Shown here piece after piece: positions 4,980 to 45,410 of a stretch of 64,000 nucleotides of DNA (position 1 is its first letter; each line of letters opens with the position of its first letter). Origin of the DNA: an uncultured Alphaproteobacteria bacterium (lineage in GTDB: Bacteria > Pseudomonadota > Alphaproteobacteria > Rs-D84). Location: contig CALXWX010000002.1 in the NCBI GenBank assembly GCA_944392565.1, positions 117,853-181,852 of the forward strand. The letters are read 5' to 3'. The notes beneath the pieces were generated by a model. The model did not search any database. It was not told the DNA's origin and was given only the letters and a program-made list of their open reading frames with translations. The position numbers were made by a program, and so were the translations under genes.

Positions 4980-5135
4980 TGCGCATTGGCTGATTACCAA
5001 TGCGGGGTCTAGAAGCCTCATATAAGTAAAACTCTCCAACACGGGTTGGAGGGCTGTTAATATATCGAATATACAGCACTATTACTTGTAATAGCTTCTA
5101 GCCTCCAACCGCCCATAATCACGGCGGTGTTTTTA
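4980..5135 (+). ncRNA. Unassigned structured leader-like RNA, copy 1 (homolog of 40910-41128)
   Basis: Possible -10 CATAAT at 4971-4976. Hairpin P0 4983-4989/4997-5003, P1 5009-5016/5094-5101, P2 5034-5040/5045-5051. Conserved AAUAUAUCGAAUA 5059-5071 and CAGCAC 5074-5079. Terminator ccgcc/ggcgg plus U-run 5109-5134. All helices covary with copy 2. Confidence 0.6.
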
Positions 5136-5191
5136 TTAACCCAATAAAACAAGTGGAGATAGAAAAATGATACTGGTCGATAATTCATACA

Positions 5192-5416
5192 TTGGTAAAA
5201 AAAATACATCGGTCGCGCAGAACCGCAAAAGTAAGACGAAACGATGCGGCAAAGATGTTACGCATAACCCCAAAGAAATTATTAAGGTATGAAAGCGGCA
5301 AAGAATTAATCCCCGAATGCGTACTGGAACGATTGTTCTATAACGCATGGGCAATGATGGCAGTGCGAAATGCACAGTATCGTGAATTGCCCCGCCGCCC
5401 ACAGTGGGAAAAATGA
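5192..5416 (+). CDS. Small XRE-family helix-turn-helix protein (start uncertain; possible A8-tract frameshift from ATG 5167)
   Basis: The 74-aa track ORF starts at a TTG with no SD. HTH segment AAKMLRITPKKLLRYESGKELIPECVLERL. An SD (GGAGA) plus ATG 5167 sits in the adjacent frame and would join this frame if the A8 tract 5197-5204 were A7. Confidence 0.6.
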   Translation: MVKKIHRSRRTAKVRRNDAAKMLRITPKKLLRYESGKELIPECVLERLFYNAWAMMAVRNAQYRELPRRPQWEK

Positions 5417-5432
5417 AGCACTGTGCCAAGTT

Positions 5433-5865
5433 CCCCTCTATGGAGGGGTGCCGCGCAGCGGCGGGGTGGTCAGAGAATACAAGAATGTGCCACATCCTTG
5501 TCATTGCGAGCGCAGCGAAGCAATCCAGTAAGTTATGCCACGCGCTTATGCGCGACTTTATTATGACTGGATCGCCACGGTCGCAATGCTCCCTCGCGAT
5601 GACAAGATAAGAGCAAGCACCAACCACACTCTTGTCATTGCGAGCCATCGCAGATGGCGTGGCAATCTCTTTTTTGTTGTTGTGTCGCTCGGGTACTGCG
5701 TACCCTGTGCGTATCCTCGTATTTGTTCAAACTGCGCTAGCGCTTGTTCTCACATGCTCGGATTCATTGCGAGCCATCACAGATGGCGCGGCAATCCAGT
5801 AAATAAAACTTGTCGCGTATGCGACACATCATTTGCACTCTGAACTTTGAACTCTGCACTCTGTA
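5433..5865. repeat. Cluster of short palindromic (REP/MITE-like) repeats
   Basis: Four copies of a CTTGTCATTGCGAGC...GGCAATCCAG hairpin element: 5497-5528, 5567-5606 (inverted), 5631-5667, 5763-5799. The last two differ at 2 positions over about 34 nt. Also a GC-rich hairpin element at 5433-5470 and several small palindromes. The ORFs called here (5136..5648-, 5404..5610+, 5535..5843+) read through repeats and look spurious. Confidence 0.75.
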
Positions 5866-9863: not shown

Positions 9864-10790
9864 ATGGCAAGATTTATTTTAATGACTGCTGTTGCTGGAT
9901 TAATTGCATTTAATGCGGTTGCCGCAACCGAAGAAGAAATTGTATATGATAATTTTCAAACAATATACACTGAAACCCCAGTTCAGTCATACTATGCATA
10001 TCCGGACGATCCAAACTTTATCCCAGAAACGGAATTCATGAACCGTGCCGACAGTCTGGATTACGATTTAAATATCGAAGAAGCGCGACAAATTGAATCC
10101 ATGATGTATCCCGGGGTAATGTTTGCAAACAAACCGATGATAATATGCCGTAATTTTGGCTGCACGCGCCTAAATGACAGAATTACGCGTACATTTTTAT
10201 TCAACAGCCTGGCAAACATGTTCATGATGAATGAATATTCCCGCGTTTATATTTGCGAAGCGGATCCGTTTTCACGCGACTGTCTGCAATCTGGAATATC
10301 ATTCCCGGTACGCAGTGGCATTGCAAATGCGCTGGTAAAAATCCCCAAAGCCACGATTTCCCAGGTCACAGTTTCAACCGGACTGTCCCGTGCCACAGTT
10401 GGCATGACATACGAATTCTTGGTAAATGGCATTGCCCGAACATGCGAACCAACAATTATGGATATTGTAATACCCGTAAATTCCCAGGCGACATTATCAA
10501 ACCGCGAATTTACATGCAATATGACCAGCGATGGATTAAGCAATGTATCATTATTGGTAAATATTGACTATATTGATTTAGACTATGGCATTCTGGGCGG
10601 ATATTATTCTGTCGGAATGCAGGGACCAACAACTGGCGGTGGCACTGGGTACGCATTGTTTAAAACAGAATTCACAACTGGTGGTATGCAATTCCGCGCA
10701 GCAACACTAGATGAATCTGATATGGCGGGCGCTAATTCTATGATGACAATTCAACCTGGCGAATACGCGGTAGAGCCACTGAAAAAATAA
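9864..10790 (+). CDS. Secreted protein of unknown function
   Basis: Signal peptide MARFILMTAVAGLIAFNAVA. TTGACA-N18-TAAGAT promoter-like sequence upstream. Several Cys residues. No family recognised. Confidence 0.7.
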   Translation: MARFILMTAVAGLIAFNAVAATEEEIVYDNFQTIYTETPVQSYYAYPDDPNFIPETEFMNRADSLDYDLNIEEARQIESMMYPGVMFANKPMIICRNFGCTRLNDRITRTFLFNSLANMFMMNEYSRVYICEADPFSRDCLQSGISFPVRSGIANALVKIPKATISQVTVSTGLSRATVGMTYEFLVNGIARTCEPTIMDIVIPVNSQATLSNREFTCNMTSDGLSNVSLLVNIDYIDLDYGILGGYYSVGMQGPTTGGGTGYALFKTEFTTGGMQFRAATLDESDMAGANSMMTIQPGEYAVEPLKK

Positions 10791-30889: not shown

Positions 30890-30966
30890 TGGTGGATGTG
30901 ATTGGACTCGAACCAACGACCTCTTCGATGTGAACGAAGCGCTCTAACCAACTGAGCTACACATCC
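30890..30966 (-). tRNA. tRNA-Val (anticodon CAC)
   Basis: ggatgtgtagctcagttggttagagcgcttcgttcacatcgaagaggtcgttggttcgagtccaatcacatccacca. Confidence 0.9.
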
Positions 30967-30985
30967 ACAAACACATAATATCAGG

Positions 30986-31072
30986 TGGTGGGGATAGTGG
31001 GACTTGAACCCACACGGTCGCAATGACCAAAGGATTTTAAGTCCTCAGCGTCTACCATTCCGCCATATCCCC
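30986..31072 (-). tRNA. tRNA-Leu (anticodon TAA)
   Basis: Class II tRNA with a long variable arm and anticodon loop cu-UAA-aa. Acceptor ggggata/tatcccc plus ACCA. Confidence 0.9.
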
Positions 31073-31094
31073 ATTCGGACTTACAATGCATGAT

Positions 31095-31134
31095 ATACTA
31101 ATGCAAAATGGGCATTCTTGTCAATATTTTTCTG
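31095..31134 (-). promoter_or_regulatory. Sigma70-like promoter for the tRNA-Leu(TAA)-tRNA-Val unit
   Basis: On the minus strand: TTGACA (31134-31129), 18 nt spacer, TAGTAT (31100-31095). Confidence 0.5.
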
Positions 31135-31290
31135 AATAAAATTAACAAAAATCACCGCCCATACTGCATATACCAATTCAAATGCGCATTTATCGCTGTT
31201 GTAATTCGTCAATGCGCACCCGCAATGATGACAGCCATGCCCCAACATGGGCGAAAAACAAAAAACCGCCCATTGGACGGTATAAAACCT

Positions 31291-31366
31291 TGGTGGAGCT
31301 GATGGGACTCAAACCCACGACCTCTACGATGCGAACGTAGCGCTCTATCAACTGAGCTACAACCCC
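31291..31366 (-). tRNA. tRNA-Ala (anticodon CGC)
   Basis: G3:U70 identity pair and anticodon loop uu-CGC-au. Followed on the minus strand by a terminator hairpin at about 31262-31288. Confidence 0.9.
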
Positions 31367-31371
31367 AAAAC

Positions 31372-31458
31372 TGGTGCGGATAAGAAGACTCGAACTTCCA
31401 AGGCATTGCTGCCACTAGTACCTGAAACTAGCGCGTCTACCAATTCCGCCATATCCGC
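31372..31458 (-). tRNA. tRNA-Leu (anticodon CAG)
   Basis: Class II tRNA with anticodon loop uu-CAG-gu. Acceptor gcggata/tatccgc plus ACCA. Confidence 0.9.
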
Positions 31459-40395: not shown

Positions 40396-40834
40396 AACAA
40401 TATCAAAAATTTACATCGCTGCCGACCATCGTGGGGTGGGGGTAAAATTATATTTAATAGAAATGTTAAACGCGGTCGGATATGCTGTTGTGAATCTGGG
40501 GACCGACGACCCGAATACCCCGGTTGATTTTCCAGACATTGCCAAAACATTGGCGGACAAGATGGAATCAGATGAAAAATCACGCGGTATTTTAATCTGT
40601 GGCACGGGCGCAGGAATGCAAATTGCGGCAAATCGCTATCGTCATCTGCGCGCATCGCGCTGTGATCGCCCAGACCAGGCACGCGACGACCGTTTTCATG
40701 ATGACATAAATGTTCTGGCATTGGCGGCGGATGATATTGATATCGAAATATCATTTTTAATCACACGCGCATTTTTGGAAAGTCCATTTGACGAAACCGA
40801 ACGCCGCATACGCAGATTGAAAAAAATTTCATAA
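40388..40834 (+). CDS. rpiB: Ribose-5-phosphate isomerase B
   Basis: IAADHRG...ICGTGAGMQIAANR. Confidence 0.9.
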   Translation: MNKTISKIYIAADHRGVGVKLYLIEMLNAVGYAVVNLGTDDPNTPVDFPDIAKTLADKMESDEKSRGILICGTGAGMQIAANRYRHLRASRCDRPDQARDDRFHDDINVLALAADDIDIEISFLITRAFLESPFDETERRIRRLKKIS

Positions 40835-40845
40835 ACAATCAAATA

Positions 40846-40870
40846 ACGCCCCCGATGGGGTGTTTTTTTT
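40846..40870 (+). terminator. Intrinsic terminator after rpiB
   Basis: acgcccc-cgat-ggggtgt plus T8. Confidence 0.75.
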
Positions 40871-40876
40871 ATACTC

Positions 40877-40905
40877 TTGCATTATTTTATATATCGCGAT
40901 AATAT
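40877..40905 (+). promoter_or_regulatory. Sigma70-like promoter for RNA copy 2
   Basis: TTGCAT (40877-40882), 17 nt spacer, TAATAT (40900-40905). The P0 hairpin begins about 8 nt downstream. Confidence 0.5.
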
Positions 40906-40909
40906 TAAA

Positions 40910-41128
40910 TTGTTAACGGGTGTTCCGTTAATGGGGTGTGACTACCTCTGCATAGGCGTCAGAATATAAACCCATCGCGTAATAACATACGCATGATTTA
41001 TTATTCGACGAAAAATATCTCCTGACATTAACCGGTCAGGAGGGCATGCGAATATATCGAATAAGCAGCACAATTCCTATGATTGTAGTCAACCTCCTGA
41101 CCACCATGCAAAAACTGGTGGTTTTTTT
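40910..41128 (+). ncRNA. Unassigned structured leader-like RNA, copy 2 (homolog of 4980-5135)
   Basis: P0 40913-40919/40925-40931, GGGGU 40933-40937, P1 40939-40945/41085-41091, about 70-nt insertion, P2 41019-41026/41035-41042. AAUAUAUCGAAUA 41051-41063, CAGCAC 41066-41071, CCUCCUGAC 41093-41101. Terminator ccacca/tggtgg plus U7 at 41101-41128. Confidence 0.6.
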
Positions 41129-41158
41129 CATTACGAAAAACAGCAGGAGATTGAACAA

Positions 41159-42082
41159 ATGAAAAACAAAATAACAATTACGCTAATCTTGTCGTCAATT
41201 TATATCATGGCATATACTGCTCCATCCAATTCTGCCGAATGCATGATAACCAGCACCATGTGTTCAGACGCATCCGCATCAACAATGCAATTGGGGGATC
41301 ATTGTTCACAAACGAACACATTCTGTTATTCTGGAACAAATTATACAGAATGCAAAACATGTGCATCTGGATATAAAATGACGCAGCATGTATTAAATCA
41401 CTCAACAGGCTGCACAATAACATACGACACATGTATAAAATCATCCGGCACCACAGACCCAGATCCATGCGATGATTGTTCACCCACACAATGGGTTAAT
41501 ATAACCGGTATTTTTGGCGACGCAACCGGATATCAATCACGAACCAATGCAACATGTGAATGGATTGAAGTGGACATAAATGGATTAACAAGTTACAAGC
41601 AAACATGTGTTCGCGAAGAAGAAGTGCGATGTGCATCCGGGTATTATGGCAACGCCGTGCATACCACCGGATACAGCGGATGCAACAAATGCCCAGAATT
41701 TAATGGCGGCGATGGGAACAGCGTATCGGGACAAAGCGCCGCCGGCACAGCTGCCGAAATAACAGATTGCTATGTTGAATATGATGGTGAAAATCCATTT
41801 TATGATAACACCGGCAGTTATATTTTTATCAGCCCATGTTATTATTCATACGAATCTGGTGATTGCCGCGTCCATGAACTGGCAACCGGCGCCACATGCA
41901 AATCTGCGACCCCAGTATGGGGTCTGGGCATGCACTGCGAAACAACAAAATACATTCGTCTGGATTCTGCTGACATGTGTTTTTCGCAGTGCGCAACATG
42001 CCCATCTGGGTATGAAATGCTGATTCGAACAACGACATACAGCGGATGCAATATCACATTTCAAACATGTGGCGAAATATAA
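41159..42082 (+). CDS. Secreted Cys-rich repeat protein (paralog of 44799-45410)
   Basis: Signal peptide. Internally duplicated module C-x-[TS]-C-[AP]-SGY-[KE]-M...GC-x-IT-[YF]-x-TC at both ends. CASGYYG...GCNKCP furin/ephrin-receptor-like spacing. Shared ITDCYV...TGSY.F..CYYS block. Confidence 0.8.
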   Translation: MKNKITITLILSSIYIMAYTAPSNSAECMITSTMCSDASASTMQLGDHCSQTNTFCYSGTNYTECKTCASGYKMTQHVLNHSTGCTITYDTCIKSSGTTDPDPCDDCSPTQWVNITGIFGDATGYQSRTNATCEWIEVDINGLTSYKQTCVREEEVRCASGYYGNAVHTTGYSGCNKCPEFNGGDGNSVSGQSAAGTAAEITDCYVEYDGENPFYDNTGSYIFISPCYYSYESGDCRVHELATGATCKSATPVWGLGMHCETTKYIRLDSADMCFSQCATCPSGYEMLIRTTTYSGCNITFQTCGEI

Positions 42083-42111
42083 AAACACCGCCCAAACGGG
42101 CGGTATTTTTT
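42081..42111. terminator. Bidirectional intrinsic terminator
   Basis: A-run, ccgccc-aaac-gggcgg, T-run. Shared by convergent genes. Confidence 0.8.
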
Positions 42112-44645: not shown

Positions 44646-44761
44646 TGCCGAATCTAAACGGAGGGTTATTTTCGGCATACTTTATGGTTGACATTTGCCT
44701 GATTTTTCGGATAAAATAAAATGTAAATTGATTGAAATTAAATGTCCGTTTAGATTCGGCA
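44646..44761. repeat. Perfect 17-bp inverted repeat (tgccgaatctaaacgga / tccgtttagattcggca) enclosing 82 bp
   Basis: Left arm 44646-44662, right arm 44745-44761, exact reverse complements. An extra ttcggca at 44671-44677 can pair with the left arm. Confidence 0.9.
44688..44717 (+). promoter_or_regulatory. Near-consensus sigma70 promoter inside the inverted-repeat-bounded segment
   Basis: TTGACA (44688-44693), 18 nt spacer, TAAAAT (44712-44717). Points at the 44799 operon. Confidence 0.55.
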
Positions 44762-44798: not shown

Positions 44799-45410
44799 AT
44801 GAATTACATCAGCAAGTTGTTATGGGGTTTTATCAGTACCATGATTTGTATTGTTTACAGAAGCGAAGCGAGTATAGTATGCACTGCATCATTACTAGAA
44901 AGTTTTCAAACAAATACTTGCAACAAAAATGCATGTAACAACCTGACTAATTGTCATTATACACAAGATTTTTTTACCGTCAGATACCCTATACCAGACG
45001 ATGGCACCCAGGTTTGCGCAAAAAACAAATATGTAGAATCTTGCAGAAATGCTTCTGGACAAACTGTAACTATTCCTGGTCGATTTGATTCGACATGTGT
45101 AAATGGCTTTGTATGCAAAGACTGTCCATCTGGTCCGGGCGGAACATTTACCGCAAGAGAATCTTTTAAACATGACATATCACCATACACCAGGGGTACA
45201 ATCATTTATTTATGTTCGAACAAAGACGCAAACAATCAACAGCTTGGCAGCAATTATCAAATGAAATATGAAATAATTAATTGCTCTATTGTTGGCACCA
45301 ATGGCAGCTATAACACCATAACCGATTGCTTTGTTAGATCTGGCATTATAACGAACGACGGTACAGGCAGTTACACATTTGTTAATTCTTGTTATTATTC
45401 GACGATATAA
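44799..45410 (+). CDS. Secreted Cys-rich protein (paralog of 41159-42082)
   Basis: Signal-like N-terminus, CKDCPSGPGGTFT furin-like spacing, and C-terminal ITDCFV...TGSYTFVNSCYYS block shared with the 307-aa protein. Confidence 0.78.
   Translation: MNYISKLLWGFISTMICIVYRSEASIVCTASLLESFQTNTCNKNACNNLTNCHYTQDFFTVRYPIPDDGTQVCAKNKYVESCRNASGQTVTIPGRFDSTCVNGFVCKDCPSGPGGTFTARESFKHDISPYTRGTIIYLCSNKDANNQQLGSNYQMKYEIINCSIVGTNGSYNTITDCFVRSGIITNDGTGSYTFVNSCYYSTI

Follow-up and report, generated by a model that had tools for sequence, protein, structure and literature searches.

The element at positions 40913–41128 (plus strand) of the window, the 64,000-nucleotide stretch of DNA analysed here, is a member of a real, conserved and highly structured leader RNA family that is apparently undescribed. 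With a probability of roughly 55%, we consider it the 5′ leader of the downstream gene, acting as a riboswitch-type transcription attenuator with two folds. A cis-acting attenuator is the most likely explanation, as it accounts for the fixed position before an open reading frame (ORF), the promoterless ORF, the terminator, the conserved competing pairings and the aptamer-like conservation pattern.

Architecture of the leader and its downstream gene

The leader (copy 2 of the window) has a length of ~215 nt and, as read from the sequence and the predicted fold, comprises a 5′ hairpin, a long closing helix, a multi-stem junction and an intrinsic terminator with a U7 run (Table 1). It is preceded by the TTGCAT-N17-TAATAT promoter that an earlier note, made by a model from the sequence, had proposed close to P0; P0 begins 7 nt past the end of the −10 element. 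An automated promoter scan overlooked this promoter because its −35 element matches at only three of six positions. Since copy 2 has a promoter of its own, the P0 hairpin is supported as the 5′ end of the RNA, as the note had assumed. The extra segment of ~70 nt described there between P1 and P2 exists and contains the gcgta/tacgc hairpin (40977–40992), but is an optional stem of the family (P1c) and not a loose insertion with a small hairpin of its own. The 3′ strand of P1b was probably mistaken there for a separate hairpin following the conserved core.

Table 1. Positions of the leader elements, the downstream gene, the surrounding cassette and the second leader copy in the window
Feature	Position	Strand	Description and basis
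Strain-variable cassette between rpiB and leuS	40835–42109		upstream terminator, promoter, leader, gene, downstream terminator
Promoter	40877–40905	+	−35 TTGCAT 40877–40882, spacer 17 nt, −10 TAATAT 40900–40905
P0, 5′-terminal hairpin	40913–40931	+	TTAACGG-GTGTT-CCGTTAA; 7 bp, loop GUGUU; fold
GGGGU, P1a 5′ strand, J1	40933–40950	+	GGGGU 40933–40937, P1a 5′ strand 40939–40945, J1 starting CCUC; fold, 16-sequence alignment
P1b 5′ strand	40951–40956	+	CAUAGG; pairs with 41076–41081
P1c	40957–41010	+	optional long imperfect hairpin, base CGUC/GACG; fold
P2 hairpin	41018–41043	+	strand A UCUCCUGAC 41018–41026, loop, strand B GUCAGGAGG 41035–41043
P3 hairpin	41044–41069	+	conserved 15-nt loop GAAUAUAUCGAAUAA at 41050–41064
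J3, P1b 3′, P1a 3′, ACCUCC	41070–41097	+	J3 ACAAUU, P1b 3′ 41076–41081, P1a 3′ 41085–41091, ACCUCC 41092–41097; fold and alignment
A′, proposed antiterminator 3′ strand	41093–41102	+	CCUCCUGACC; 10-bp complement of strand B
Intrinsic terminator	41100–41128	+	ACCACCA/UGGUGGU stem, 9-nt loop, U-run; 7 consecutive T, the first one paired
Spacer with Shine–Dalgarno (SD) sequence	from 41129	+	30 nt; SD AGGAGA 41145–41150, then ATG at 41159
307-aa Cys-rich ORF	41159–42082	+	signal-peptide-like N-terminus; sequence
Copy 1 of the leader family	4983–5134	+	architecture as copy 2, without P1c; then XRE-type HTH gene, ATG 5167

The statement that the U7 terminator ends ~31 nt before the ATG of the 307-aa gene, with AGGAGA in between, agrees with our count of 30 nt. 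The promoter scan found no promoter-like site between terminator and ATG; with no promoter visible for it alone, the 307-aa gene would depend on read-through, as had been proposed. A Pfam search with the 307-aa protein gave no domain, only four close homologues were found among 5.8 billion proteins, and protein searches revealed very few relatives of the protein and its tail family.

Copy 1, which the earlier note had placed at 4980–5135 and described as sharing the architecture of copy 2, was indeed found there. Because P1c is the common state among leaders of Cys-rich genes (see below), copy 1 is regarded as the form without this stem. The folds of the two window copies reached z-scores of −5.65 and −5.84 against dinucleotide shuffles, and 0 of 200 shuffles were as good. 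A 21-nt core is identical in both (two occurrences in the window versus 0.03 expected), and a search with the family profile (nhmmer) retrieved these two copies and no others in the 64 kb.

The HTH gene behind copy 1 (5167–5416) is frameshifted at an A-run (5197–5204), with GGTAAAAAAAAT in the window versus GGTCAAAAAAT in L036, L038 and L040; an intact 82-aa HTH gene was called at this site in L038 and L040. The gene could be a pseudogene, the homopolymer could be prone to slippage, or the assembly could be in error. Downstream of this gene (5430–5850), GC-rich palindromic units (...GTCATTGCGAGC...GCAATC...) are repeated and yield spurious 'RWRGN' ORFs. The same units occur in L020 (7136–7308) and downstream of the HTH gene in L037, L039 and L041; they recur in another metagenome-assembled genome (MAG), partly on the opposite strand, and look REP-like.

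Leader homologues and the genes behind them

MAGs of Alphaproteobacteria and metagenome contigs from ENA yielded a total of 16 distinct leader homologues. When one genome per GTDB species was scanned for the exact core, eight matches appeared, six of which were true homologues, while the core matches in L014 and L015 were due to chance. Five of the six came from contigs titled Alphaproteobacteria, Rickettsiales or proteobacterium, one of them naming sheep colon. The contig of the sixth, L018 (CAZJGX010000001.1), is titled as a Muribaculaceae MAG; its leader and gene are nearly identical to those of a 'Rickettsiales' MAG (L016), and the title is probably a binning error. The exact-core scan of JGI metagenome contigs also gave eight matches, all by chance and none with the leader architecture, and no match was obtained in viral contigs (IMG/VR). 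Members with a divergent core (L021 3342–3136, L033, L037/L039, L042–L049) were recovered by a profile search of the fetched loci and by looking up contigs that encode relatives of the downstream proteins. Three fetched contigs had no complete leader: L030 and L032 bear an inverton in its place, and the contig L031 breaks off within the terminator.

All 16 aligned leaders lie 5′ of a same-strand ORF, which speaks against the reservation in the earlier note that the element might be a mobile repeat found at sites other than 5′-UTRs. Every member has a promoter-like −35/−10 pair of the sigma-70 kind ending 6–8 nt before P0 (TTGnnn-N16–18-TAnAAT in the homologues) and a GC-rich terminator with a U-run, followed by a same-strand SD sequence and ATG ~25–50 nt past the terminator. 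The genes behind the leaders fall into two classes only, small XRE-type HTH proteins (72–118 aa, Pfam HTH_31/HTH_19) and Cys-rich proteins with signal-peptide-like N-termini, several of which share a C-terminal motif (...ITDCY...TGSY...CYY). As only these two classes follow the leader, the idea of a shared signal rather than a shared pathway, put forward on the basis of the two window copies, fits the extended family. P1c was present in all eight aligned leaders before Cys-rich genes and absent from all eight before HTH genes.

The leader loci are scattered among housekeeping genes (rpiB-leuS, dnaE-tonB, pnp-rpsO, prfA-aroK, hisS-ygjP and a tRNA cluster). In L016 (1427–6611), rmlACDB-like genes, a leader and a 375-aa Cys-rich gene (~4.8 kb) are located between two tRNA pairs; tRNAs matching them lie only 222 nt apart in the window (30893–31458), three with the same Rfam bit scores. 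The protein behind the leader in L017 (7353–8000) contains three colipase N-terminal-like Cys-rich repeats (PF01114, E 2e-19) and a weak Colipase_C match; PF01114 is a eukaryote-type domain, here within an alphaproteobacterial MAG.

Consensus structure and covariation

The 16 leaders were aligned by hand in blocks and checked against the raw sequences; an N-padded MAFFT pass kept the columns. From 5′ to 3′, the consensus consists of P0; GGGGU-(G)-P1a 5′ strand; J1, starting with CCUC or CCC; P1b 5′ strand; the optional P1c; an A-rich J2; P2 (UCUCCnnnn/nnnnGGAGG); P3; J3 (ACWAUU); P1b 3′ strand; P1a 3′ strand-ACCUCC; and the terminator. Across the 16 sequences, the 55 pairs of seven helices were 96.5% paired, and 28 pairs were changed on both sides, in an alignment that was fitted by hand to the structure and thus favours it. 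The covariation score was 0.472 versus 0.151 for shuffled alignments (0 of 500 reached it) and ≤0.066 with slid partners.

Compensation was mostly found in P0, P1a, P1b and P3. It affected six of seven pairs in P0 (99.1% of cells paired), five pairs in P1a, seven of eight pairs in P1b (100% paired) and four of six pairs in the P3 stem; the terminator stem showed an A-U to G-C switch in 8 of 16 sequences. The weakest helix was P2 with 86.6% pairing. Because the hand alignment leans towards its structure, RNAalifold was additionally run on untouched MAFFT alignments. With eight sequences, P0, P1a, P2, P3 and the terminator were recovered with 11 compensatory pairs; with the six HTH-type leaders, the full set of P0, P1a, P1b, P2, P3 and terminator was obtained with 13 compensatory pairs.

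Sequence is conserved in the junction strands (A-rich J2, ACWAUU of J3) and in the P3 loop, while the stems vary with compensation. The loop has 12–16 nt and most often reads GAAUAUAUYGAAUAA; variants among the homologues are ...AUUGAAUA, GAAUAACACAAAAUA and AAAUAACCAAUA. Judged from the alignment, this combination of free stems with fixed junctions and a fixed loop is aptamer-like, and a conserved, structured candidate aptamer with covariation is what generically characterizes a riboswitch.

Two competing folds

The G-rich segments of the leader are GGGGU and strand B (GGAGG), the C-rich ones J1, strand A and A′. The stable fold contains the pairings of GGGGU with the distal ACCUC and of A with B, together with the terminator. 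In the alternative fold, the partner of GGGGU is the CCUC of J1, 6–7 nt downstream, and that of B is A′ (CCUCC and 4–6 further nt), so that the first 3–5 nt of the terminator 5′ arm are occupied. In copy 2, the two partners of GGGGU are the distal ACCUC at 41092–41096 and the local ACCUC at 40944–40948, and A′ overlaps the first 3 nt of the terminator 5′ arm.

The B:A′ helix comprised 9–11 bp in all ten members measured. Over the 16 sequences, its ten aligned pairs were 98.7% paired versus ≤63% when slid, compared with 86.6% for the competing P2. One column covaries jointly in A, B and A′ (G:C:G versus A:U:A), and a neighbouring 1-nt indel is present or absent together in the three strands. 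The local GGGGU:J1 hairpin was 94.9% paired; the first G of GGGGU is replaced by A in L047 and by U in L021a, both of which pair with J1 (A-U and U-A) but not with the distal C. Since most B:A′ columns show no variation, the covariation of the antiterminator amounts to the one column, the one co-indel and the two cases in the 5′ hairpin, which may trace to few evolutionary events.

In transcripts cut before the terminator 3′ arm, forcing B:A′ cost 0–12 kcal/mol in the ten members. The B:A′ fold was within 0–4.3 kcal/mol of the minimum free energy (MFE) in six of them (1.8 kcal/mol for copy 2), while the cost was 6–12 kcal/mol in the others. In the full-length RNA, the terminated fold was 4–17 kcal/mol more stable than the B:A′ fold; switching would therefore have to be kinetic or assisted. 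Taken from the sequences, the pairings suggest a terminator/antiterminator platform under kinetic control.

The three CCUC(C) stretches reported for copy 2 were found (40944–40948, 41019–41022 and 41093–41097). They had been likened to anti-SD seeds; the comparative analysis gave no support for this role and assigned the stretches as partners of GGGGU and GGAGG in folds that exclude each other. The interpretation given in the earlier note is thus right in outline and partly supported, with its 'insertion' and 'anti-SD seed' replaced by an optional stem and two-state pairing.

Proposed attenuation mechanism

According to the attenuator model, transcription would begin just before P0. In state I, GGGGU and the distal ACCUC would close the long P1, A:B would form P2, and the P1b/P1c/P2/P3 junction would assemble; the terminator hairpin would then form and stop transcription 30 nt before the ATG. 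In state II, GGGGU would pair locally with the CCUC of J1, trapping the P1 5′ strand in a loop, and strand B would pair with A′ (CCUCCUGACC), taking 3–5 nt of the terminator 5′ arm, so that polymerase could enter the gene. An effector bound at the folded junction or at the P3-loop domain would tip the balance towards one of the states; that the effector-bound state is the off state is our guess. The operation of the two-state switch in vivo and its direction are inferences, and the effector may be a small molecule or a protein.

The downstream genes, HTH regulators and Cys-rich secreted proteins, form a coherent set but point to no particular metabolite. Conserved hairpin loops of 13–15 nt are found more typically where a protein or RNA is recognized than in pockets for small molecules. 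Given the large conserved loop and the absence of a metabolic theme, a protein or RNA partner appears as likely as a small molecule. As a self-contained explanation, the same attenuator might be driven by an RNA-binding protein or another RNA recognizing the P3 loop (AAUAUAUYGAAUA) instead of a small molecule. We regard this as a minority possibility: it would fit the two AAUA repeats of the loop, the gene set without metabolic theme and the loop variants GAAUAACACAAAAUA and AAAUAACCAAUA, which would be expected of co-evolving partners, whereas the loci are scattered between housekeeping genes, with no conserved neighbour gene for such a factor.

Comparable in standing, and likewise rather improbable, is the view of the element as a stand-alone gene for a trans-acting small RNA (sRNA), with the C-rich stretches or the P3 loop as seeds and the ORF transcribed by incidental read-through. 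The own promoter and strong terminator, the very stable fold with the terminator always in the MFE structure, the unpaired CCUC of J1 in the terminated fold and a conserved 13–15-nt loop that could serve as a seed are all compatible with an sRNA. Against it, the 16 aligned members are all located ~25–50 nt before a same-strand ORF of one of two gene classes for which no promoter apart from that of the leader was seen, the stable fold has two of the three CCUC(C) stretches engaged in base pairs, and the conserved B:A′ and GGGGU:J1 alternatives would be left unexplained. Sites complementary to the loop numbered 11 in the 64 kb (including both copies) versus 5 expected, with 2 of 100 shuffles giving as many, and no convincing excess of P3-loop targets was apparent in the window. 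There was also no match to an Rfam sRNA family, alphaproteobacterial ones included. An sRNA function is compatible with a dual role and could coexist with attenuation in cis.

Comparison with known regulatory RNAs

The designation as an orphan RNA was borne out. At the gathering threshold, a search of the whole window against Rfam 15 returned only five tRNAs. For the region 40800–41250, only noise was obtained at E ≤ 10, with nothing on the plus strand overlapping 40910–41128, and in five loci with six other members no match at E ≤ 5 overlapped a leader on its strand. Queries of the literature for the topic and for the core sequence yielded nothing relevant.

SAM-I and FMN leaders belong to the OFF-type riboswitches, which terminate transcription and have an aptamer of several stems around a junction, closed by P1. 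The leader family resembles them in the promoter-proximal structured domain closed by a long P1 with the terminator directly 3′ of it, in the conserved junction strands, freely covarying stems and an optional stem, and in a strand that can pair either inside the aptamer or with the 5′ flank of the terminator. It differs from them in that the aptamer is a candidate only, which resembles no Rfam riboswitch in sequence or by covariance model; in the downstream genes, which are regulators and secreted Cys-rich proteins and not genes of biosynthesis or transport; and in having the 5′ hairpin P0 as an extra element along with a large conserved hairpin loop.

Genes for regulators and for secreted or surface proteins are often found behind second-messenger riboswitches such as c-di-GMP-I/GEMM-I and its relatives. 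The gene set of the leader family, related to signalling or host interaction and without metabolic theme, is similar, an analogy that concerns the regulon only: the leader has no match to the Rfam models of GEMM-I or c-di-GMP-II, and its architecture differs.

Alphaproteobacterial sRNAs of the cuckoo/CcsR and alpha-r14 types carry CCUCCUCCC anti-SD motifs, and these families are contained in Rfam. Common to them and the leader are the alphaproteobacterial host, several CCUC(C) stretches and a Rho-independent terminator. The C-rich stretches of the leader, however, are strands of helices (P2, P1a) or of the junction J1 and are not located in hairpin loops, where no CCUCCUCCC-type motif was found; in addition, the leader is always fixed upstream of an ORF and has no Rfam match.

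Strain variation at the leader loci

The cassette between rpiB and leuS (Table 1) is absent in six contigs with identical RpiB (L006, L008–L012, ~10448–10490), in which a 42–45-nt spacer contains one bidirectional terminator, with no repeats at the junctions. In one strain, Microviridae-type genes (Phage_ORF5, Chlamy_scaf, Phage_F) adjoin the conserved block (L006 17800–20447). Where the rpiB-leuS site is filled, it is occupied by the RNA leader in the window and L033 and by an inverton in L030 and L032. In L030 and L032, homologous Cys-rich genes (P0002, P0004; 51–59% identity to the 307-aa gene product) lie behind an invertible promoter flanked by the repeats GCCTAATCCAAACGGTGGTTT/AAACCACCGTTTGG (L030 ~600–770, L032 ~500–665), and the segment is inverted between the two contigs. 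The invertons thus occupy the same position as the leader, as 5′ control modules of homologous Cys-rich secreted-protein genes, but operate by DNA inversion between 15–20-bp inverted repeats and have no similarity to the leader, which itself shows no inversion.

A third inverton of this type was found in L035. The window itself contains an invertible promoter (44647–44760) before a 203-aa Cys-rich gene (44799–45410). Its repeats GCCGAATCTAAACGG (44647–44661) and CCGTTTAGATTCGGC (44746–44760) flank 84 nt that carry TTGACA-N18-TAAAAT aimed at the 203-aa gene; in L034, before a homologous gene (first 18 codons shown identical), this 84-nt segment points the other way.

Around the core at the copy-1 site, promoter, P0, terminator and HTH gene are constant, and the core occurs in at least two allelic forms (window/L036/L038/L040 versus L037/L039), with P1a and P1b entirely different yet paired. 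A further core at this site, in L048, precedes an HTH gene that is 71% identical. At the pnp-rpsO site, L042 and L043 encode an identical HTH protein and have near-identical upstream flanks, and their cores differ throughout. In the allelic cores (L037 5950–6092, L039 5698–5840, L042–L049 ~2314–2471), P1a, P1b, the P3 stem and the loops are different over their whole length, and the pairing is maintained. The copy-1 core, moreover, is 96.5% identical to one at an unrelated locus in another MAG. From the differences between allelic cores and the identity across loci it follows that the cores recombine between loci or alleles or undergo diversifying selection.

Such variability might be taken as a sign of a mobile, MITE-like DNA repeat or of a DNA-level switch or operator with incidental RNA structure, a notion to which we attach very little weight. 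The presence or absence of the leader-plus-gene cassette between strains, the 96.5% identical leader with unrelated flanks, the invertible promoters before homologous Cys-rich genes and the 10-bp inverted repeats formed by B and A′ could be read in this way. The filled site has neither terminal inverted repeats nor a target-site duplication, though, and the whole spacer is replaced; the many copies outside 5′-UTRs typical of MITEs were not found either, the element never occurring outside a 5′-UTR position and never internally inverted, and viral contigs gave zero matches. Some of the 28 compensatory pairs join strands outside and inside the B–A′ interval, as is expected of RNA pairing and not of DNA recombination sites. 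DNA inversion between B and A′ was rejected, as the interval was never seen inverted and its boundary is crossed by pairs.

A ribosome-mediated attenuator with a leader peptide is practically discounted, because neither start codon nor frame is conserved: strand B contains the SD-like GGAGG, and in copy 2 a following AUG opens a 38-codon frame ending on the ATGA of the main gene, but in copy 1 GGAGG is not followed by a start codon and the frame closes early, the AUG is missing from most aligned members, the substitutions are stem-compensatory and not codon-like, and a conserved short ORF was not found.

Implications for the organism and the leader family

A more far-reaching form of the attenuator model, which we put forward tentatively and hold to be possible at best, is that the family represents a new class of riboswitches for a small signalling molecule, serving XRE-type regulators and strain-variable Cys-rich secreted proteins, with the P1 stems as hypervariable 'address' sequences. 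If true, this new riboswitch class would act in uncultured, apparently gut-associated Alphaproteobacteria, and the combination of identical flanks and protein with differing, compensated cores would point to diversifying selection or to RNA–RNA self-recognition between copies.

If the attenuator model holds, the family adds an undescribed regulatory RNA class with ~16 sequence-diverse representatives from a poorly known, uncultured alphaproteobacterial lineage. The swapping of whole leader cores within a species with pairing intact is unusual and could inform the evolution of attenuator RNAs. The genes under its putative control look like factors of host or community interaction, namely secreted Cys-rich proteins, one with colipase/Dickkopf-like repeats, and small regulators; sister alleles have such genes under phase variation by invertible promoters. 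The leader family would thereby offer a testable handle on gene switching in these organisms and a candidate for orphan-riboswitch ligand hunting.
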